Notes under the pieces: model-generated | What the model was told of the DNA's origin: nothing | The model's database searches: none | The model's input: only the letters and a program-made list of their open reading frames with translations | Translations under genes and position numbers: made by a program | Shown here: positions 2,472 to 16,978 of the stretch, one piece after another | Layout of the letters: each line of letters opens with the position of its first letter | Numbering within the stretch: the first letter of the stretch is position 1 | From: an uncultured archaeon | Lineage (GTDB): Archaea; Iainarchaeota; Iainarchaeia; Iainarchaeales; GCA-2688035 | Assembly: GCA_964354805.1 (NCBI GenBank) | Contig: CAYHBD010000032.1 | Span: 1-17,114, forward strand | DNA length: 17,114 nucleotides | Reading direction: 5' to 3'

Positions 2472-4025
2472 TCAGACCTGCATTGAAAGGCTAACGCTAA
2501 GGTTTGCTGCAGCAATTTCAAATGAAAGCGAGTTTGAGTTAACGCTGCCAAGAATACTATCTGCTGTTACGGAGGCGAAAACAGTTCTTTCCCCAACAGC
2601 AAGCATGTTAACATAAATGTCTGCCTGCTTTGTTTCATTCGGCTTTATTTCTGGAATGCTCAGCGTGCTTGTCTCTGTTTGAATCCAATCATTGGACAGG
2701 CCGTTCAATGAAATGCGCAGATTTTTTGCCGCAATCTTGCCGTTGTTTGTTATTGTTACAGTGAATTTTACAACGCTGTTAAGGGGTACAAGGTTTGGGT
2801 TTGAAGGGGCAGCTGCCTTTTTTGTTGGAAAGATTTTTCCGCTTAATGCAATTGCAGCAATGGCTGTATCAGGGGCATTTGAATTTAGCGCATCTCTCCC
2901 AAAGCCTTTGTCCGGGAGCTGCATTCCCTTAAGGCATTGCAATGCGCTATTTGCATCGCGGTTGTAGGCGATTAAAGCCATTGCCCCCAAAGCGGTTGTG
3001 TAAGCATTAGAGAGGCAGCCGCTTGGTTGCTGTTTTCCTTTAAGCCATGCAATTGCTGCATTTATTGCTTGGTTTTTTTCCTGCCCTGCTGCTGCAAAAG
3101 CTACCAGCGCTTCAGCACTGTAATCTTCTGAACTGTTTTGCCCTGCTTTGTATCCAAAGCCGCCATCTGCATTTTGGGCTGAAAAGAGGTAGTCAATTGG
3201 TGTTTTGCTGTTTTTTGTTGGCATAGGCGTGCTTGCTGCAGCGAAAGCAAGTATTGCCCAGGCTGTTGTGTCAACATCGCTGCTGCCCCAGCCACTGAAA
3301 CCAGCGTCGTTTTCTTGTTTTGAGAGCAGAAAGTCAATTGCAGTATTGTTTCCTTTGTTAAAATCTTCAACCGAGAGGCCGTTTGCAATCAGTGCCATTA
3401 TTGAAACGCCTGTGTGCAGTGCATCGCGTTCAAAACCCGGGTAAGCGAAGCCAGCATCTTGCGCTTGGTTTGCAAGCAGATAGCCCTGGGCATTTTGTTT
3501 AACCGAATCATTGCCTGCTGAAAGGTTTAATGCCATTAATGCAAAAGCATTTCCCCAGACAGCATGCGAGCCGATTTGCCCATTGCTGTCTTGGTGTGCT
3601 GCAAGCCAGGTTATTGCATCGTTAATTACAGTCTGCCTTGTTTTGCTCGGCACATCAGCAAAGCCCAATTCGATTGTGTCACCGTTTACTGGAACATAGG
3701 CACTTACTCCAACCGGTGCGAATTCCGCATTCACCCAAAAATGCCAGTATTGCCCTGCTGAATTGTTTATTCCGTTTATTCCGTTGATGAACCAGCTGTC
3801 GAAGGAGGGGTAGTATGTCATATCCATCTGCAGATTGTGTGCTGCAGCAACCTGCATGAATGCATTGAATGCATTTGCGTCGTCTGCTACATTGGTTGAT
3901 TCCTCTATGTCAGTGAATGTGCCAGCTGGGAAATTGTAGATTACCGTAACGTTTTTTGCTGTCGCATGCGCTGCCAGGAAGGAAAACAAAATGAGTAAAA
4001 GAAAACATTTTTTCAACTTGGGCAT
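2472..4025 (-). CDS. Secreted DUF4430 + prenyltransferase-like alpha/alpha barrel + CARDB-like protein (transcobalamin-like domain set)
   Basis: Signal peptide MPKLKKCFLLLILFSFLAAHATA. DUF4430 motif FINGINGI...YWHFWVN...VGVSAY...GDTIE. Repeats WLAAHQDSNG, YLLANQAQDAGF, FLLSKQENDAGF, YLFSAQNADGGF, MQLPDKGF. C-terminal FTVTITNNG...IKPNETK. Confidence 0.8.
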   Translation of the reverse strand: MPKLKKCFLLLILFSFLAAHATAKNVTVIYNFPAGTFTDIEESTNVADDANAFNAFMQVAAAHNLQMDMTYYPSFDSWFINGINGINNSAGQYWHFWVNAEFAPVGVSAYVPVNGDTIELGFADVPSKTRQTVINDAITWLAAHQDSNGQIGSHAVWGNAFALMALNLSAGNDSVKQNAQGYLLANQAQDAGFAYPGFERDALHTGVSIMALIANGLSVEDFNKGNNTAIDFLLSKQENDAGFSGWGSSDVDTTAWAILAFAAASTPMPTKNSKTPIDYLFSAQNADGGFGYKAGQNSSEDYSAEALVAFAAAGQEKNQAINAAIAWLKGKQQPSGCLSNAYTTALGAMALIAYNRDANSALQCLKGMQLPDKGFGRDALNSNAPDTAIAAIALSGKIFPTKKAAAPSNPNLVPLNSVVKFTVTITNNGKIAAKNLRISLNGLSNDWIQTETSTLSIPEIKPNETKQADIYVNMLAVGERTVFASVTADSILGSVNSNSLSFEIAAANLSVSLSMQV

Positions 4026-4066
4026 GAAAACATCGTCTGCCAATGTTTTTAAATAGTTTCTTTAAA

Positions 4067-4084
4067 TGATAATAATCGTTATCA
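4067..4084. promoter_or_regulatory. Inverted repeat TGATAA-N6-TTATCA in the divergent intergenic region, candidate operator
   Basis: tgataa-taatcg-ttatca, immediately next to a TTTAAA TATA-like element at 4061-4066. Confidence 0.4.
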
Positions 4085-4113
4085 AAAAGGGTAATACCTG
4101 AATAGTGGGCTTT

Positions 4114-4209
4114 ATGGATGTTTTTAGGGCTTTGGGAAACGAGAACAGATTGAATTTGTGCTGGGGTTGGTTTGATGGATATTTTTAGGGCTTTGGGAAA
4201 CGAGAACAG
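4114..4209 (+). repeat. 35 bp direct repeat duplicating the 5' end of the ArsR-DUF4430 gene
   Basis: atggatgtttttagggctttgggaaacgagaacag (4114-4148) vs atggatatttttagggctttgggaaacgagaacag (4175-4209), 1 mismatch, 61 nt offset. Confidence 0.92.
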
Positions 4210-4681
4210 GAGGAACATGCTCAAAATTTTGCTGCAAAGGAGAATGCATATTAGTGCATTGGCAAAAGAGCTGAATATTGCTGTTCCTGTTGCATTAAAG
4301 CATACCAAAATTTTGGAAGAGGCTGGGTTTATTGAAAGGACAAGGTTTGGGAATACCCATGTTTTGCAGGTAAAGCAGGAGGCATTGCAGCGGATAAAAC
4401 ATTTGTGGGACTTGTTTGAAAAACCCCTTGTGGTTTCGGTTAAGAAAGGGGCAACAATGTTGGATGCATTGGGCACTATGTCTGGCTTGCAGATTGAAAA
4501 GCAAAAAGACGGGGCTTTAATTACAGCGGTGGATGGGAAAAAGGGCTACTATGTTTATGAGGTTAATGGAAAGCTGGTTGAGCTACCGATAGACTTGTTC
4601 AAGATAGAGAAAAGCATGGAAGTGGAATTAAAGCGCTTGCTGCCCGTTGTCGGGAAGAAAATAATTATCTCAATAAAATAG
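4175..4681 (+). CDS. ArsR-family wHTH regulator fused to a C-terminal DUF4430-like domain
   Basis: N-terminus IFRALGNENRRNMLKIL...HISALAKEL...KHTKILEEAGFI (ArsR). C-terminus VSVKKGATMLDAL...LITAVDGK...YYVYEVNGK parallels TVEKGANAFDEM...FVTSINSV...YWALYVDGK in the neighbouring DUF4430 protein. Confidence 0.85.
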   Translation: MDIFRALGNENRRNMLKILLQRRMHISALAKELNIAVPVALKHTKILEEAGFIERTRFGNTHVLQVKQEALQRIKHLWDLFEKPLVVSVKKGATMLDALGTMSGLQIEKQKDGALITAVDGKKGYYVYEVNGKLVELPIDLFKIEKSMEVELKRLLPVVGKKIIISIK

Positions 4682-4738
4682 GGTTATTTTGGAAAAAAAG
4701 AATTGTTTTGATAAAATGCTTTGCAGGGAAAACCGCTA

Positions 4739-5179
4739 TTAGCTTCCTTCCAGGCGCCATTCAATTGCAGTGTCTTTTTCAAGGGTGATTGCGCTTATCC
4801 CTATTTCGCTCATCTTCCCGTCAACGTACAATGCCCAATATTGTTTTTCTGTTGAGGCAACACTGTTTATGCTTGTCACAAAAGCGCCATACATGGACAT
4901 CTTGGTTTCCACTTCCGCAATCTTGTTCATTTCGTCGAATGCGTTTGCCCCCTTTTCAACGGTTATTGTTTTGTCCAAGACAACTTGGTCGCCTGCCAAT
5001 GCCTTAAAGCTTACTGAAACCGTTTCTTTTCCAGGCTGTGCAGTTGAAGGGCCTGCGAGGTTTTGCGCTGCAATGCTGAATACCAGCCAGATTACAACTA
5101 ATATTGCAAGCCACAGGAATAGCTTCTTCTCGATTTTTGTTTCCTTTTTGGGCTTTGCTGCCGGCTGTGTTTCATCCAT
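4739..5179 (-). CDS. Membrane-anchored DUF4430 (transcobalamin beta-domain-like) protein
   Basis: Single transmembrane helix, then YGAFVTSINSV...QYWALYVDGKMSEIGISAITLEKDTAIEWRL. Confidence 0.85.
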   Translation of the reverse strand: MDETQPAAKPKKETKIEKKLFLWLAILVVIWLVFSIAAQNLAGPSTAQPGKETVSVSFKALAGDQVVLDKTITVEKGANAFDEMNKIAEVETKMSMYGAFVTSINSVASTEKQYWALYVDGKMSEIGISAITLEKDTAIEWRLEGS

Positions 5180-5181
5180 TT

Positions 5182-5715
5182 CTATGCCCTCGCAAAAAAC
5201 CTGAATTTGCTTAAAACAGCTGAATCCTCAAGAGCCGGATTGCTGACTATTGCCCTGTCAAGCAATGGCGTGAGAATCAAAACGAATCCGCTTACAGTGA
5301 GCAGGTGCAGTATTGTGAAGGGAATCTGCCCGATGAAGGCTTGCATGTAGCTCATTCCGAACATTGCTGGACCGAATAAAACGCCTGTTACAAAATCAAA
5401 TATTAGAACGCCGATAACACCGCTTCCCAAATAGTGTTTTAGTTGCACTTTTTTCATTCTCTTATACGTGAAGTGGAATAATATGCCCAAAGCAGCGTAA
5501 GTGCCTGCCGTCACCCAGGTCCAACGGCCTATGCCGCTTGTTATCAAATCAAAGGAAACCATTGTGAGAAAAGCGAATAATGATGCCTGCCACCAGCGGT
5601 TCTGTTTTGCGAATGGCAGCATGCATCCCATTATTGGATCATTGTTTGGAATGAATCGCAGCAGCCTGTAGGCATTGCAGAATAAAATGCTTAAAGCGTA
5701 CTTTAATACCTTCAT
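5182..5715 (-). CDS. ECF transporter S component, probably CbrT/CblT-like and cobalamin-specific
   Basis: 177 aa with about 5-6 hydrophobic helices and motifs RLLRFIPNNDPI, GIGRWTWVT, QIPFTILHLL. Directly upstream of a DUF4430 gene. Start placed at ATG 5715 because the ORF-track extension overlaps tRNA-Met. Confidence 0.65.
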   Translation of the reverse strand: MKVLKYALSILFCNAYRLLRFIPNNDPIMGCMLPFAKQNRWWQASLFAFLTMVSFDLITSGIGRWTWVTAGTYAALGILFHFTYKRMKKVQLKHYLGSGVIGVLIFDFVTGVLFGPAMFGMSYMQAFIGQIPFTILHLLTVSGFVLILTPLLDRAIVSNPALEDSAVLSKFRFFARA

Positions 5716-8786: not shown

Positions 8787-10043
8787 TTATTTTTCTAAAA
8801 TTTTTGTAAATTTGCCTAATTCGCTTAATTTTATTTTCCTCTGCTTTCCGCTCTTCAAATTCTTCACAGTAATGCTTTTTTCTTTCAGTTCGTCTTCGCC
8901 GATTATTGCAACGAATGCTATGCCTTTCTTGTCAGCGTACTGGATGTTTTTGCCAATGCCCCTGTTCATCAAATCCATTTCGCAGCTCACGCCGGACTGC
9001 CTGATTTTTGCCGCAATCTGCAGGCATTTTTCAACGCACTTTTCCCCAACAGGCGCAATGAACAATTTTGTTTTGCTTTCAACCAGAATTTTTTTCTCCA
9101 ATGCTTCAAGCAATCTTTCAACTCCGAAGCTCCCTCCAACAGCAGGCGTTGGCGCTCCGCCATACAATTCAACCAGTTTATCATATCTGCCGCCGCCGCC
9201 AACACTCGGGCTGCCTTTAACGCACACCTCAAAAACCATACCAGTGTAATACTCCAAGCCCCTTGCAAGGCGCAAATCAAGGGAAACAAATTTTTCCAAG
9301 CCATTTTCTTTAAGCAATTTAAGCAGCGCTTGCATTTCCTGCAGGGGAACGGTGTTTTGCAATTTCAGCTTTTCCAGCTTGCCGCTTTCCAGTTGTCCAA
9401 GAATTTGTGTGTCAATTCCTTTTTGCTGCAGCTCTTTTTCTACGCCCTGCTTTCCAATCTTTTCCAATTTGTCAATGCTCCTGAAGCAATCAACAACTTT
9501 CTCTTTCTCCACGCCGCAGCTTAATGCAATCTCTTCCAGTAGCTTCCTGTTGTTGATTTTCACAGCAAACTCGCCTTTCTTGAATCCAAGCGCCTGCATC
9601 ACTGCTATTGCAACAGCGATTGTTTCAAAATCTGAAAGCATGCTGGCGCTGCCTACAATGTCCCAGTCCGCCTGGGTGAACTCCCTGTAACGCCTTTCCC
9701 CTGGCCTGTCATACCTGTAAACAGTGCCGATTTGGTATCTCTTGAATGGCTTTGGCAATTGCGGGTTTGATGCAACAACCCTGGCAAGTGGAACAGTCAA
9801 ATCAAAGCGCAGCCCGAGCTCTCTTTCGCTCTTGTCCTTGAAATAGTAAATCTCTTCTTTTATTGCTTCTCCGCCTGAGCCCTTTGCCGCAAGCAGGGCA
9901 AAGTCTTCCACAATCGGGGTTTCCAATGGCTGAAAGCCATAGCTCTCAAAAACCCGCCTGCAGGTGTCCTCTATCCGCTGCTTTTTCTCCGCCCTCTCAG
10001 GCAGAAAATCCTGCATTCCACGAACTGTCTGGAATTTTTCCAT
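8787..10043 (-). CDS. hisS: Histidine--tRNA ligase
   Basis: RGMQDFLP, LRFDLTVPLAR, YRYDRP...YREFTQ, LARGLEYYTG, GGGGRYD, FGVERL and a C-terminal anticodon-binding domain, so not HisZ. SD AGGTGA before ATG 10043. Confidence 0.97.
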   Translation of the reverse strand: MEKFQTVRGMQDFLPERAEKKQRIEDTCRRVFESYGFQPLETPIVEDFALLAAKGSGGEAIKEEIYYFKDKSERELGLRFDLTVPLARVVASNPQLPKPFKRYQIGTVYRYDRPGERRYREFTQADWDIVGSASMLSDFETIAVAIAVMQALGFKKGEFAVKINNRKLLEEIALSCGVEKEKVVDCFRSIDKLEKIGKQGVEKELQQKGIDTQILGQLESGKLEKLKLQNTVPLQEMQALLKLLKENGLEKFVSLDLRLARGLEYYTGMVFEVCVKGSPSVGGGGRYDKLVELYGGAPTPAVGGSFGVERLLEALEKKILVESKTKLFIAPVGEKCVEKCLQIAAKIRQSGVSCEMDLMNRGIGKNIQYADKKGIAFVAIIGEDELKEKSITVKNLKSGKQRKIKLSELGKFTKILEK

Positions 10044-10076
10044 GTTAATCACCTAATTCTTGATTCAAAGTTTTAT

Positions 10077-10946
10077 TTAAACAATTACTTTCTGCAGGCT
10101 GTATTCAAGAATGTCTTCCGCGCCAGCCTTTTTGATTTTTGGTATAATTTCCCTTACCCTCTTTTTGTCCACTGCAACCTTTATTGCATACCCGCTTTCT
10201 CCATAAAGCTCGCTCACTGTCGGGCTTTTCATGCAGGGAAGCACTTTTATCAGCCTTTCAAAGTTTTCCTTTGAAACATTCATTTCAAGCAAAACCTTCT
10301 GCTCAGCCAAAAGCACGCCCTGCAGCAGGGCATTTATTTCTTTTATTTTTTCTCTTTTCCAGTTGTTTTCCCATGCCTGCTTGTTTGCAATCAGCACAGT
10401 GCTTGAGCGCAGCAGCTCGCCAATTATTCTCAGCTTGTTTGCCTTAAGCGAAGCCCCTGTTTCAGTCAATTCAACGATTGCATCAACAAGCAAAGGGCAC
10501 TTTGTTTCAGTTGCACCCCAGCTGAACTCGACTTTTGCGTTTACCCTGTTCTTGCGCAGGTAGCTTTTCGTTACCTGGACAAGCTCTGTTGCAATCCTTT
10601 TTCCCTCAAGACCTTTAACTGAACGAATCTTTGAATCCCTGTTCACTGCCAGCACCCATCTTACATTCCTGTTTGTTTTCTTTGCATACCGCAGCTCTGC
10701 AATTTCCTTTACCCTTGCTTTTGTTTCAATGCACCAGTCCCTGCCTGTTATGCTGGCATCTATCACGCCGTCCTCAACAAAGCGCGGCATTTCTTGGGCC
10801 CTGGCCATCATCAGTTGAATGCTGTTATCGTCTATTGAAGGGAAATAGCTTCTGCCATTAATGTTTATCTCAAACCCTGCCTTTTTGAACAGGTCCAGTG
10901 TCTTCTCTTCAAGGCTTCCTTTCGGTATCCCAAACACAAGCTTCAT
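10077..10946 (-). CDS. hisG: ATP phosphoribosyltransferase, long form
   Basis: [43 protein letters not shown] and a C-terminal regulatory domain. ATGA overlap with the hisI stop and a GGAGG SD. Confidence 0.96.
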
Positions 10947-11939
10947 TTCACAGCCTCCTTTTTGTTGAAAAAGCAACTATACGTGCCAGTATGGCACGCA
11001 TTCCCCCTTTGTTCAACCTTTAGCAAAACCGCGTCCCTGTCGCAGTCAAGCAAAATCTCTTTTACCTTCTGGCAATTTCCAGATGTTGCCCCTTTTTGCC
11101 AAATGCATTGCCTGCTTCTGCTCCAGTATGTTGCCTTGCCTGTTTCAATTGTTCTTTCCAATGATTCCCTGTTCATGAAAGCAAGCATCAGCACTCTGCC
11201 ACTGCTTTCATCCTGTGCAATCGCTGGAACTAGGCCTTTTCCTTTTGCAAAATCCACTGAATTGAATTCCATTATTTCTTGCAAGGAAATTTTTCCGCTG
11301 TAAAAAGCCATTCCAAGCACGCTGTCAAACCCTAAATTCTCCAGTGCAATGATTTCCCGCATGCTGCTTATGCCTCCTGCAAAGCTTTTCCTGTTGCTTG
11401 TTAACCCGCTTAATTCCTTTGCAAAAGCCGTGTTTGTCCCGCTCAGCATGCCCTCCTTTTCAATGCAGGTGAAAAGGAATTCCGAGCAATATGGCTCCAA
11501 TTCTTTCACCAAGTCAAGTGCATTTCTCCCTGTATTTTCTGTCCAGCCTTTTGCCATTACTTCTCCCTCCCAAGAATCAACTGCAGCGATGAAGGCAATC
11601 CCTCCCAAATTCTTTGCTCAGGCTTTGAAGGAACCCTTTGTCAGCTTTTGTGCCGATTATTATTTTTTTTGCACCCCATCCAAGCACTTGCCCTGCCTTC
11701 TTTATGCTTCTTATGCCTCCGCCAACCCTTGCATTTACAACAGCGCAGATTTCTTTGATTGCTTCGCTGTTATCGCCCTTGCCCATGGCGGCGTCTAAGT
11801 CAATCACTTGGACGGCAGGCAACGAAGACAAGGTCTGAGCAAAACGCACTGGCTCTTCTTCCAGCTGCAGCTGTTTCTCCTTTCCCTGCCTTAGCTGCAC
11901 AATTTTTCCATTCATCAAATCAATGCTTGCTATTATCAT
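10943..11939 (-). CDS. hisA: HisA-HisI fusion of about 331 aa, interrupted by a +1 frameshift at about 11588-11594
   Basis: Frame 0 (11939-11577) gives the HisA N-half ([34 protein letters not shown]). The +1 frame gives IAAVDS...KGW...EGMLSG...AGGI and then HisI ([34 protein letters not shown]). Joined product reads EFGRDCL-IAAVDS. Confidence 0.9.
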
Positions 11940-12752
11940 TGTAACACCTCCAATCCTTTGCTTTTCAAATATTCTTTCACCTGCTTAACAGTGAATTTTC
12001 CATAGTGGAAAACGCTTGCTCCCAAAACAGCGCTTGCTTTCCCTTCAGACAGAACCGTATACATGTCTTCAAGGCTGCCTGCACCGCCTGATGCAATCAC
12101 TGGAATTGCAACAGCCTGGCTTATTGCTTTGGTTAAAGCAATGTCAAACCCCTGCTGGGTTCCATCCTTGTCTATTGAAGTGAGCAGAATGCTGCCTGCG
12201 CCAAGTTTCTCAACAGTTTGCGCCCACTCAATTGCATCCAAGCCAGTATTTTTGCTCCCTGCGTTTATGAAGACATTCCATTTGTTTCCAACCTTCTGCG
12301 CGTCAATTGCTGAAACAACGGCGCTTTTGCCGAGTTTTTGCGAAAGCTGCTGCAGTAACCCCGGTTTCTTCACTGCTGCGCTGTTTACGCCTATTTTTGC
12401 TGCCCCTGCTTGAATCAATCCCTTGGCTTCTGCAACGCTTCTGATTCCTCCACCGATTGTTAGTGGAACAGTGCATGCAGCAGCTATTCTTTTCACTGCC
12501 GCAATCCTTGTTTTTCTTCGTTCCACTGTTGCATTGATGTCCAATACGACTATTTCATCTGCCTCCTGTGCGCAGTATTTTAGCACTTGTTGCACTGGAT
12601 CTCCGACCTTTTCCACATTCCTGAATTTCTTTCCCTTCACCAATTCAATCTTTCCATTGCTCAGATTGCAGTCCAAGCAAGGAATGACTTTCTTTATTTC
12701 TCTTTTGGTGAAGTCGCTCACCTTTTACACTTATGTCTATGTTTGAATTCAT
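11936..12752 (-). CDS. hisF: Imidazole glycerol phosphate synthase cyclase subunit; start is either ATG 12752 with a +1 frameshift or the SD-less GTG 12721
   Basis: VIPCLD, GDPV, ADEIVVLDI, GGGIRS, SAIDA, LLTSIDKDGT..GFD, IASGGAG, ASVFHY. The perfect SD GGAGGTGA (12759-12766) serves ATG 12752, whose frame ends after 35 aa at 12645. Confidence 0.93.
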
Positions 12753-12770
12753 CTTGATTCACCTCCAGAA

Positions 12771-12785
12771 TCAGTGATGATGAAG
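12771..12785 (-). promoter_or_regulatory. CTT CAT CAT CAC TGA (Leu-His-His-His-stop) element directly upstream of the hisF SD
   Basis: Read directly on the minus strand, 4 nt before GGAGGTGA. No canonical in-frame start codon between it and tRNA-His. Confidence 0.5.
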
Positions 12786-12811
12786 TAAACCACTTATAGA
12801 ATTAGTTTGAG

Positions 12812-12920
12812 GGCCGGTACCGGGAGTCGAACCCGGGCCTAAGGCTCGCTGTAGCTTTTGCGAGCTTTTTTCTAAAAAGCTCCCACAGGCCTCAATGCTA
12901 GCCACTACACCATACCAGCC
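12812..12920 (-). tRNA. tRNA-His(GTG) with encoded G-1 and a 36 nt intron at position 37/38 (12847-12882)
   Basis: G-1:C73, acceptor GCTGGTA/TACCGGC, anticodon stem GAGGC/GCCTT, T arm CCGGG-TTCGACT-CCCGG. Canonical BHB: central helix CTGT/ACAG, bulges GG|G and CG|A, intron helix AGCTTTT/AAAAGCT. Confidence 0.95.
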
Positions 12921-12923
12921 ATT

Positions 12924-13116
12924 CGCCGACACGCCCGGCGGGTTCGGGTCCGATTGCCTTACGGCAATCCGACGAGCTCGCCTTTCGGCTCGCATTCGCA
13001 GCCCTTCGGCAAAGCCTTTTTTGCTTTCGCAAAAAAGCCTCCTTGCAAAACCTTCGGTTTTGCGAGGTCCCGCAAAAGCAAAGCTTTTGCAGGATGGGAA
13101 AAAAAGCCTCTCGGCT
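12924..13116 (-). other. Dense hairpin array abutting the tRNA-His 5' end (structured leader, ncRNA or palindromic element)
   Basis: Hairpins at 12924-12940, 12952-12969, 12980-12989, 13017-13036, 13041-13067, 13068-13094 and 13105-13116. Four have GNRA loops on the minus strand (GTAA, GAAA, GAAA, GAGA). Confidence 0.6.
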
Positions 13117-13268
13117 GCTTTAGAATTAATTTTAAAGTAATTAAATTTGTTTCTGTTCTGGCAGCTACTTAAATCAAAAGAAAAAGTTTCATTGAATGTG
13201 AAGTAACTCACTTATCATAGCTGTCAATAAGATTTATGGGCGTATTTGTTTTAAAAACCCTTGCCTGT

Positions 13269-13592
13269 TCATCTGGCTCTTGCAATTGCCTCAACTTTCT
13301 TTGGCGCTGTTTCTTCAATCATTCTTGCTTCGAACCGCAGGATGTCTTTTACCATCGGGCTTTTAGTGTTTAATGTAAACAGTTTTGTGTTTCCAAAAGT
13401 CCTTGTGACCCTGATTAAGTCAAGTTCCTGCAGCTTGTGCCAGTGCTTGAATAGGGCGCCCTTGCTCACGCCTGCAAGCTGCTGCACTTCCTTTTTGCTG
13501 TATTCCCCGCCAATATTGTCAATGAATGTGTCAAGAATTCTAATAAACGGGTTGTCTCCAAAAAATCGAACAAGATTTGTTTCCTCGCGCAT
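13269..13592 (-). CDS. Small winged helix-turn-helix protein
   Basis: FGDNPFIRILD...YSKKEVQQLAGVSKGALFKHWHKLQELDLIRVTRTFGNTKLFTLN gives an HTH plus wing pattern. Confidence 0.75.
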   Translation of the reverse strand: MREETNLVRFFGDNPFIRILDTFIDNIGGEYSKKEVQQLAGVSKGALFKHWHKLQELDLIRVTRTFGNTKLFTLNTKSPMVKDILRFEARMIEETAPKKVEAIARAR

Positions 13593-15116: not shown

Positions 15117-15290
15117 TTTGATTTGAAATTTGGTTGTTTGAAGGAAAGAATTGCAGGGCGCTTGTAATTTTATTTGGTTTTTTTTAAAGAAAGAATTGTA
15201 TGTGCTGTAATTTTTTTTGGGTTGGTTTGGGATTTGGTTTTTTGAAATAAAGAATTGCAGTGTGTTATAATTTTTTTCAGGAGAATTGCA
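15107..15290. repeat. Four degenerate tandem units filling the argH-RSH intergenic region
   Basis: Units begin gcgcttgtaattt (15107, 15158), gtgctgtaattt (15202) and gtgttataattt (15262). Each ends in agaattgya and the first three contain atttggtt. Confidence 0.75.
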
Positions 15291-16978
15291 TGGAGAAGCG
15301 TTCTGATAATGAATTGAAAAAATTGCTTGCGATTGTCAAAAAGAATTACCCTGACTGTGATTCTGCACTAATTCAGAACGCTTTTTTGTTTGCAAAAAAG
15401 GCCCACAGGTATCAAAGAAGAGAGTCCAAACAGCCTTTTTTTATTCATCCTGTTGCAACAGCATTCATTTTGGCTGAGCTAGGGGCTGATAGCAAAACAG
15501 TTGCGGCTGCTTTGCTGCATGATGTTCTGGAGGACACCAAGACAAGCCCAAAACAACTTCGTTCCCTGTTTGGCGCCGATGTTTTAAGGCTTGTTCAGGG
15601 CGTTACCAAATTGAGTAAGCTTGCAGAGCAAAAGCAGAGTGCAAGGGCAGCAGCGAACCTGCAGCATTTGCTGCTTGCGACAACAAAAGAACCCAGGGTT
15701 ATTGTAATAAAGCTTGCTGACAAGCTGCATAACCTGAGAACACTGCGCTTTCTGCCAAGCGAGGACAGGCACAGGATTGCTGCTGAGGCATTGGCTGTGT
15801 ATGCTCCAATTGCTTTAAAGTTGGGCATTCATGCTTTGTATAATGAAATGAGTGGTTTGGCTTTCAAATATTTGAAGCCAGAGATTTACAGCAGTTTGAA
15901 AAGAAGCGTTATAAAAAAAGAGAAAGCAAAGCGGCCTGAAATCAATGCAATGATTGGCATAATCAAGAAGAAAGTTGGCAAGAGCTTTTTGTTCAGCATT
16001 GATGAGAAAACGTTTTTCGCTATTTATTCAAAAATGCAGACAAAGGAGAAAAGCTTGGATGAGGTGCCTGACACACTTGTTTTGAAAATCATTGCGCCAA
16101 CAGTTGCTGACTGCTATTGCCTTCTTGGAACACTGCACAGCCTTTTCACACCCCTGCCTGGAAAAATAAAGGACTACATTGCTTTGCCCCAGCCTAACCT
16201 GTACCAGGCGCTGCATTCAACTGTTCTTGGCCCAAAAGGAACCCCTATGAAGATTCGGATTGCCACAAAAGAGATGCAGGAAATAACAAAAAAAGGAATC
16301 ATTGCTTTCTGGCAGCTGCAAAGCAAGGGAACAGACAAGCTGCTGCACAAAAACATTGCGCTGCTTGCAAAGTTAATGAGCAAAAGCGCTGCTGCCGGAA
16401 ACGAGGATTTTGTCGATGCCCTGAAATCGGATTTTCTGGCAAAAACAATAACTGTTTTTTCAGCAGACGGTGAAGCGATTGAGTTGCCAGCTGGCGCTAC
16501 TCCTATTGATTTCGCGTTTCACTTTGATAAAAAGAGCGCTTTGAGGCTTTGGGAGGTGAAGGTTAATGGAAAATTTGTTTCCCTTTCAAGAAAGCTTGAA
16601 AGCGGTGACATTGTTGAAACAATTTCCTCAAGCGAAGTGCAGGTAAAGGAATCATGGCTGCATTCTGTGAAAAGCTTTGCGGCAAAAAAAGCAATCAAGG
16701 CCTTTTTGCGCTCGCAGCGCGCTTTATGGAAACAAATGCCATCGATTGATTTAAATGTTGAAGTAAACGATGTTGTCGGCGTGCTTGCTGCAATCAGCAG
16801 GGCACTTAGCAGCAATGGAATCGACATCAGGGCAGCGTCGGTTGGAACAATGCCAAACGCAAAATCAGAATGCCACTTCAACCTGGAATTCCCAAGCGCT
16901 GAAAAATTAAGGAAAACAATGGATAAAATAAAGAAAATAAAAGACGTGAAATCAGTAGAGATAATTTACAGGGAATAA
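15290..16978 (+). CDS. Long RelA/SpoT homologue (HD hydrolase, degenerate synthetase, TGS, ACT)
   Basis: AHRYQRR, FIHP, LLHDVLEDT, IKLADKLHN, KDYIALP..YQALHST, LPAGATPIDFA, KVNGKFV, and C-terminal ACT EVNDVVGVLAAI. SD-like AGGAG before ATG 15290. Confidence 0.92.
   Translation: MEKRSDNELKKLLAIVKKNYPDCDSALIQNAFLFAKKAHRYQRRESKQPFFIHPVATAFILAELGADSKTVAAALLHDVLEDTKTSPKQLRSLFGADVLRLVQGVTKLSKLAEQKQSARAAANLQHLLLATTKEPRVIVIKLADKLHNLRTLRFLPSEDRHRIAAEALAVYAPIALKLGIHALYNEMSGLAFKYLKPEIYSSLKRSVIKKEKAKRPEINAMIGIIKKKVGKSFLFSIDEKTFFAIYSKMQTKEKSLDEVPDTLVLKIIAPTVADCYCLLGTLHSLFTPLPGKIKDYIALPQPNLYQALHSTVLGPKGTPMKIRIATKEMQEITKKGIIAFWQLQSKGTDKLLHKNIALLAKLMSKSAAAGNEDFVDALKSDFLAKTITVFSADGEAIELPAGATPIDFAFHFDKKSALRLWEVKVNGKFVSLSRKLESGDIVETISSSEVQVKESWLHSVKSFAAKKAIKAFLRSQRALWKQMPSIDLNVEVNDVVGVLAAISRALSSNGIDIRAASVGTMPNAKSECHFNLEFPSAEKLRKTMDKIKKIKDVKSVEIIYRE

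Follow-up and report, generated by a model that had tools for sequence, protein, structure and literature searches.

Introduction

Programmed +1 frameshifting relies on a small set of ingredients. In bacterial prfB (CUU-UGA) the CUU codon occupies the P site, pairing with the 16S rRNA ends about 3 nt upstream, and a slow UGA codon in the A site senses RF2. In yeast-type shifts such as those of Ty1, ABP140 and EST3 (CUU-AGG-C, CUU-AGU-U), CUU precedes a sense codon decoded slowly by a low-abundance Arg or Ser tRNA. The antizyme frameshift is eukaryotic, places a stop codon in the A site and senses polyamines. Known stimulators of +1 shifts comprise a Shine-Dalgarno (SD) sequence 3 nt upstream, in bacterial cases, and a slow A site (PMC5009743). 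Shifting at 'hungry codons', as in starved E. coli, has been described as an error, and a 2016 review knew of no productive use of it under starvation (PMC5009743). In archaea, a -1 shift in fucA of S. solfataricus and the readthrough events for Sec and Pyl were the only recoding unequivocally determined as of 2021 (PMC8037382).

Here we analyse a 17,114-nt contig (the window) from a 1.38-Mb Iainarchaeales genome assembly, 88.5% complete (G000), which carries histidine biosynthesis genes. A sequence-only reading of this DNA had proposed that ribosomes short of charged tRNA-His slip at CTT-CAY-C and thereby produce the biosynthetic enzymes. Our comparisons support that interpretation, and the system they suggest is larger: a four-site cascade that would begin upstream of tRNA-His and use an SD-like stimulator absent from the earlier account. 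We consider it probable that slow histidine decoding drives SD-assisted +1 slips which switch on the his genes.

Results

Gene content of the window

All coordinates refer to the minus strand unless marked otherwise. The genes follow in the order small gene, leader, tRNA-His(GUG), hisF, hisA-hisI, hisG and hisS. The long-form hisG (10077-10946) and the histidyl-tRNA synthetase gene hisS (8787-10052), last of the cluster, are intact. The tRNA-His(GUG) gene at 12811-12919 (Rfam RF00005, 45.6 bits) is the sole tRNA-His found in the assembly; ARAGORN, run with introns, gives it a 36-nt intron at about 12847-12882. A TATA-like box (13249-13257) suggestive of a promoter lies 31-39 nt upstream of the first leader ATG. 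In every one of the 28 loci that have the first site of this leader (site A, below), a similar box, recognized by a loose pattern with no null model, begins 28-40 nt ahead of the leader ATG.

Searches of this 88.5% complete assembly found no hisD, hisB or hisE, and no close match to hisH or hisC; full-length HisD was present in only 3 of 23 family genomes. The G000 hisF is 78% identical to that of the related genome G004 and 55% to that of G009, so the his operon of G000 looks like a rearranged, shortened form.

Several neighbours deserve mention. A 107-aa gene at 13269-13592 is without Pfam or NCBIfam match, appears helix-turn-helix-like by eye and has a paralogue on contig C9. We rejected it as a dedicated regulator, as it has no family match and adjoins the leader in only one other locus. 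On the plus strand, a long RelA/SpoT homologue (15260-16978; HD, RelA_SpoT, TGS and ACT domains) lies next to both argH and the his leader, and G001 likewise has a similar ORF beside argH (L032 4208-5923). This archaeal protein is possibly a second sensor of uncharged tRNA. Behind tRNA-Met, a DUF6580 membrane protein, a DUF4430/prenyltransferase-fold protein and an ArsR-type regulator (2472-5715) form a cluster that resembles a cofactor uptake module.

Four CUU-His sites in series

The sequence-only reading had placed CTT-CAY-C at 11588-11594, 12707-12713 and 12779-12785, and all three were located there. A fourth site, A, lies further upstream at 13197-13203. Leader A (13189-13218) consists of ATG and eight codons (MISELLHIQ) followed by a stop; after six codons it reaches site A, a GUGAG word followed by CTT CAC (13197-13211 in full). 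From there a +1 linker frame of 142 codons (12771-13199) crosses the tRNA-His gene to site B, with neither a stop nor a His codon on the way. Palindromic repeats occur in the linker (12920-13110), and related elements are found near other G000 tRNA genes and within tRNA introns.

Site B (12771-12793) consists of a GUGGU word, CTT, three His codons and a stop. It has no nearby start, and its zero frame reaches 142 codons upstream to site A, which appears to be the only route by which ribosomes could arrive at 12785. The +1 frame leaving site B (12749-12781) is 10 codons long, contains the SD GGAGGTGA for leader C, and ends in an ATGA overlap with that leader at 12749-12752. Leader C (12645-12752) has an SD-served ATG, runs 14 codons to its site and would yield 35 aa if unshifted. 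At site C (12707-12722) a GGUGAG word precedes CTT CAC, and the +1 frame enters the HisF body (11936-12709; TIGR00735, E 3e-85, just under cut-off), which has no ATG of its own; the +1 product is 257 aa long. Finally, site D lies inside hisA (11588-11605): a GGGAGGGAU word, 3 nt, and CTT CAT. The zero frame encodes the N-terminal half of HisA (11577-11939; Pfam His_biosynth positions 1-124; 120 aa if unshifted), and the +1 frame encodes the C-terminal half joined to HisI (10943-11590; His_biosynth 123-227 plus PRA-CH), 215 aa in all, with a stop that overlaps the hisG ATG.

All four sites thus share one layout: an SD-like word, 3-4 nt, CUU and a His codon. At each the zero frame ends within 3-21 codons (4 past site D, 21 past C, 3 past B) and only the +1 frame goes on, as the earlier reading had described for HisA-HisI, HisF and the 10-codon frame. 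Read from 13218 with one +1 step per CTT-C, the path is continuous to the ATGA at 12749-12752; from the leader C ATG, one further step enters HisF. A tRNA-Leu(GAG) gene is present in G000. At every site examined, here and in relatives, the A-site codon is CAT or CAC, and none has a stop codon there as prfB does. A natural control is found in hisA itself: at an in-frame CTT CAA (Leu-Gln, 11624-11630) the +1 frame stops after two codons and SD pairing is weak.

Some of the original reasoning needed revision. The His codon is indeed the first of its zero frame at the three sites listed, and this is uninformative for hisA, since intact relatives have no His before about residue 313. The seventh base of CTT-CAY-C is not conserved (A at site A, T in the hisA of G001); the unit is therefore better written as NYY-CAY with a 5' SD-like word. 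Enrichment of the 7-mer is weak evidence: the window has nine matches where 3.9 are expected, a count attained in 4 of 200 shuffles. Avoidance of CTT-His in coding sequence is not specific either, with an observed/expected ratio of 0.27 against 0.35 for CTT followed by other codons starting with C. The idea that other amino-acid operons would carry CTT plus their cognate codon found no convincing counterpart in G000, where a candidate at carA on contig C22 turned out to be an ordinary SD and GTG start.

A conserved break inside hisA

The hisA break recurs at the same position in ten sequences, as CTT CAT in nine and GTT CAT in one. Protein identity among them is 65-83%, and the two halves are open and conserved. 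As the sequence-only reading had anticipated, break and CTT-CAT are kept in nine sequences while third codon positions vary: all six bases of site D are invariant, against merely 8/115 and 6/80 invariant third positions. A break shared by divergent orthologues, with an invariant site between variable flanks, is what is looked for in a programmed frameshift. The eight best short HisA homologues (clusters) are each exactly 120 aa long, with Leu-His at 116-117. In a midpoint-rooted tree the split genes form one clade (support 100/100) among 33 intact ones, which fits one gain of the split followed by retention.

The two halves also join cleanly. Pfam splits HisA at profile positions 124/123 of 228 with neither gap nor overlap, and an alignment of the joined protein with intact HisA shows equal length across the junction. 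Contigs from three independent runs bridge site D, one identical over 166 nt and two with 27-28 substitutions and no gaps, and contigs of run X2 bridge sites B (12785) and C (12713) without indels. The check for assembly indels thus favours the original observation: misassembly does not account for the break in hisA. One could also picture pseudogenes of a decaying pathway, given that the G000 pathway looks incomplete and the G003 operon degenerate. The same break nevertheless occurs with open, conserved halves across ten sequences, including G009, which has hisD, C, B, H, F, A-I, G and S in a single operon, and contigs assembled independently show no indel; artefact or decay is left with a negligible probability.

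Might the frame be corrected in the RNA, by polymerase slippage, editing or splicing? There is a precedent in an ant endosymbiont, where slippage restores a his gene (PMC5009743). At none of our sites, however, is there a long homopolymer run at the break, and the constraint on His together with pyrimidine-ending P-site codons points to tRNA re-pairing instead. We regard such correction as exceedingly improbable.

The leader and tRNA-His in relatives

Loci were gathered by HisA-HisI and HisG homology rather than by motif, giving 26 tRNA-His genes beside his genes in eight Iainarchaeales families. In 25 of the 26, an upstream ATG is followed after 3-8 codons by [ACG]TT and a His codon, the ATG standing 4-7 codons ahead of site A; the first P-site definition, CTT/GTT, gave 19/26, and ATT was added after the data had been seen. 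With any other amino acid in the A site, the pattern occurs in at most 6 of the 26 loci, and the His version precedes other tRNAs in 4 of 83 cases.

The +1 frame crosses tRNA-His in 24 of 25 loci and the other two frames in none, against a null of 3.3%. Among its 2071 codons there is not a single His codon, compared with 48 and 26 in the other frames. Introns of the crossed tRNAs measure 36, 54, 63, 153 and 51 nt, all multiples of three. At 13 of the 19 loci under the CTT/GTT definition, the frame meets a second site in the correct phase, at a distance of about 230 to 450 nt. The loci are kin and share the tRNA part of the linker, so these counts are not independent trials.

In the reverse direction, one loose genome-wide pattern proved too unspecific and another was used solely to find loci: with the latter, 15 of 16 picked matches lie upstream of tRNA-His, 14 of them with hisS behind. 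The +1 frame crosses the tRNA in eight of these 15 loci and stops before or inside it in the other seven; read-through of the tRNA is thus common and not required.

Homologues of site B exist in G001, G003, G004, G009, G010, G011 and G018. G009 has site B in two copies (L033 16093-16529, -), which share one +1 frame and ATGA and hence would act in parallel. In G018 (L045 1851-2594, -) a slip at site B would lead straight into an Asp/Glu-family amino-acid racemase (TIGR00035). This candidate histidine-related enzyme is encoded between tRNA-His and leader C. Elsewhere the +1 frame of site A holds long ORFs upstream of or at tRNA-His (L134 1686-2882, -; L136 1265-2134, -; L084 8029-9204, -), each of which has a Met of its own around codon 42-46 and is free of His codons over a length of 290-399 codons; those of L134 and L136 match LAGLIDADG_3, and that of L084 resembles L134. 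The zero-frame tails of leader A after His are Cys-Gly-rich or acidic in L034, L040, L046, L131, L146 and L147, and 2-5 codons long in other loci.

First enzyme genes and hisG

The same leader stands before differing first genes. A +1 step from the 14-codon leader C leads into HisD in G009, G005 and G012, into a HisG-HisE fusion in G004, G010, G011 and G018, and into HisF in the window and on the independent contig L127. In G003 (L034 9970-10090, -) the step enters a HisD fragment of 28 codons, behind which lies a hisF without a start; a deletion seems to have occurred here in an operon that is decaying. Other frame changes were seen in hisF of G057 (L035 8412-9172, -), near residues 159-166, and apparently near codon 140 of hisB in G009 and likewise on contig L052.

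The sites were also compared across 29 short-type hisG genes selected by homology. All 29 have a His codon in the +1 phase before the conserved motif, against 7 and 6 in the other phases; 28 are without ATG, and five without ATG, GTG or TTG. The P-site codons are CTT (18), GCC (6), ATT (2), GTT (2) and CTC (1), all pyrimidine-ending. Standard decoding assigns them to G34 tRNAs, and a +1 slip would bring the wobble base of such a tRNA into pairing with the C of the His codon. The GCC-CAT (Ala-His) form, at the hisG starts of L094, L095, L097, L101, L105 and L116, occurs in one family and mostly has a spacer one codon longer.

These genes bear on a reading with no frameshift at all, in which GTG or TTG starts within the motif come under leader control through coupling or hairpin opening, and HisA is made as two half-barrels. 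Many sites do have a GTG or TTG shortly before them in the +1 frame, which we count against our proposal; in the window these are the in-frame GTG at 12721, within site C, and a TTG at 11608. At sites A, C and D a GUGA...UCAC hairpin of 5-6 bp could form over the SD-like word, and the hisA break falls at about mid-barrel (Pfam 124/123 of 228). The half-barrel symmetry of HisA and HisF is well established. Against this reading, five of the 29 hisG genes offer none of the three start codons, and the word in the +1 frame would be TTC and never TTT, with Pro in GCC-CAT sites: the zero-frame His alone is constant. RNA folding at the sites is no better than in shuffles (z -0.64 to 0.61), and a ribosome stalled on the His codon would presumably cover the GTG 8 nt upstream. 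Internal starts are accordingly quite unlikely as an explanation.

The hairpin arms can also be seen as a DNA operator, a GTGA-N6-TCAC palindrome bound by a repressor, with the frames incidental. Sites A and C are near-perfect palindromes and the first site lies just behind the TATA-like box. Yet CAT, not CAC, dominates among the sites, and those with GCC-CAT or a longer spacer break the palindrome; an operator leaves unexplained the ATG phase, the open +1 frame free of His, the intron lengths, the ATG-less hisG and the hisA break, and the small upstream gene stands beside the leader in only one other locus. We judge an operator highly unlikely.

Pairing with the 16S rRNA tail

The 16S rRNA of G000 ends in GAUCACCUCCU. 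Words such as GUGAU, GGUGA and GGAGG end 3-4 nt before the P-site codon and pair better than controls: with this one tail applied to all sites, the mean is -5.8 kcal/mol for 24 hisG sites and -2.1 for 372 control codon pairs. In the window, pairing with the genome's own tail amounts to -3.9 (A) and -4.0 (B), both weak, and to -8.5 and -11.7 kcal/mol at the other two sites. Pairing involves the inner GAUCAC segment of the tail, not the CCUCC segment used by prfB.

Searches for other RNA devices were negative: over 12600-13400 a T-box model found nothing with E of 1 or less, an Rfam scan returned the tRNA as its only match and none to RF00514, and a scan tuned to bacterial terminators found no sense-strand terminator hairpin.

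An SD-like word next to CUU could by itself give basal slips, and Ty1 CUU-AGG-C shifts at about 40% unaided (PMC5009743). The slips might therefore be real and constitutive, setting a fixed low level or stoichiometry with no response to histidine, which would suit a G000 that seems to be without parts of the pathway. On the other hand, the A-site codon is always His while P-site codon and spacer vary, sites occur only on His-related genes in the loci examined, and the linker frame excludes His codons. Constitutive slipping thus seems unlikely to us.

Discussion

The four sites are real and conserved, and very probably programmed. In the mechanism we propose, scarcity of charged His-tRNA would leave the A site empty at CAU or CAC; the G34 tRNA in the P site would re-pair one base on, from CUU to UUC, with its wobble G on the C of the His codon, and pairing of the mRNA with the 16S tail would assist this re-pairing. 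The +1 slip would then lead to the his enzymes, and with plentiful histidine the codon would be read and the ribosome would stop. The predicted route leads from A via tRNA-His to B, from B to the ATGA of leader C, from C into HisF, and through D to complete HisA-HisI.

What the individual sites contribute is more speculative. Sites A and B may act by translational coupling into leader C, may set whether the tRNA is excised or read through, and could conceivably add transcript protection. Site D might gate HisA-HisI and, via the stop-start overlap, hisG as well. The full picture, a serial hungry-codon +1 sensor with read-through of tRNA-His (one transcript giving tRNA-His or enzyme mRNA according to histidine supply) and a new hisA gate in one lineage, is one we lean towards by a modest degree.

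The end-product feedback proposed from the sequence needs a qualification. In G000 a loop on synthesis cannot be closed, since hisD, hisB and hisE were not found and full-length HisD is limited to those three family genomes; the loop there may be partial, or the genes unassembled. Fuller operons of relatives carry the same sites, and in G009, for instance, the loop may be closed.

If true, this mode of control would take its place beside attenuation, T-boxes, riboswitches and uORF reinitiation in the regulation of amino-acid synthesis. It would put hungry-codon frameshifting to productive use, something of which the 2016 review knew no instance (PMC5009743). For archaeal cellular genes it would add a +1 shift to the stop-codon readthrough and the -1 case that alone were established in 2021 (PMC8037382). 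It would also imply that translating archaeal ribosomes scan for SD-like words. In practical terms, many Iainarchaeota his genes would be mis-started or called as fragments, and the cassette would measure only about 15 nt. We found no description of His-gated frameshift control in the literature searched, whose coverage falls short of most subscription journals.

Among described systems, the elementary event proposed here is the hungry-codon shift of starved E. coli. With prfB the his sites share CUU in the P site, the SD-like pairing about 3 nt upstream, a short zero frame and, as proposed from sequence, a slow A site as the sensor and a product made when the sensed factor is scarce. They differ in having a His sense codon in place of UGA, with re-pairing to UUC, so the sensor would be the aminoacyl-tRNA rather than RF2; moreover, the P-site codon varies (GUU, AUU, GCC, CUC), the sites are serial and archaeal, and they control an operon. 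Like Ty1, ABP140 and EST3, they combine CUU with a slowly decoded sense codon; unlike them, they use the codon of the pathway's end product and an SD-like word, which those shifts lack. Antizyme offers a parallel as a metabolite-responsive +1 shift within a feedback loop, and fucA as an interrupted archaeal gene expressed by frameshifting, though by -1 and not gated by an amino acid. The enterobacterial his attenuator (hisL, RF00514) likewise senses charged tRNA-His through translation of His codons in a leader that precedes the his operon. It has a run of seven His codons, compared with one at A, C and D and three at B, which has no nearby start; here a reading frame would be the output, one of the sites is internal to an enzyme gene, and no terminator hairpin was found. 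Altogether, the his system stands outside the prfB, Ty1, his-attenuator and T-box families, with an elementary slip that resembles that of prfB.
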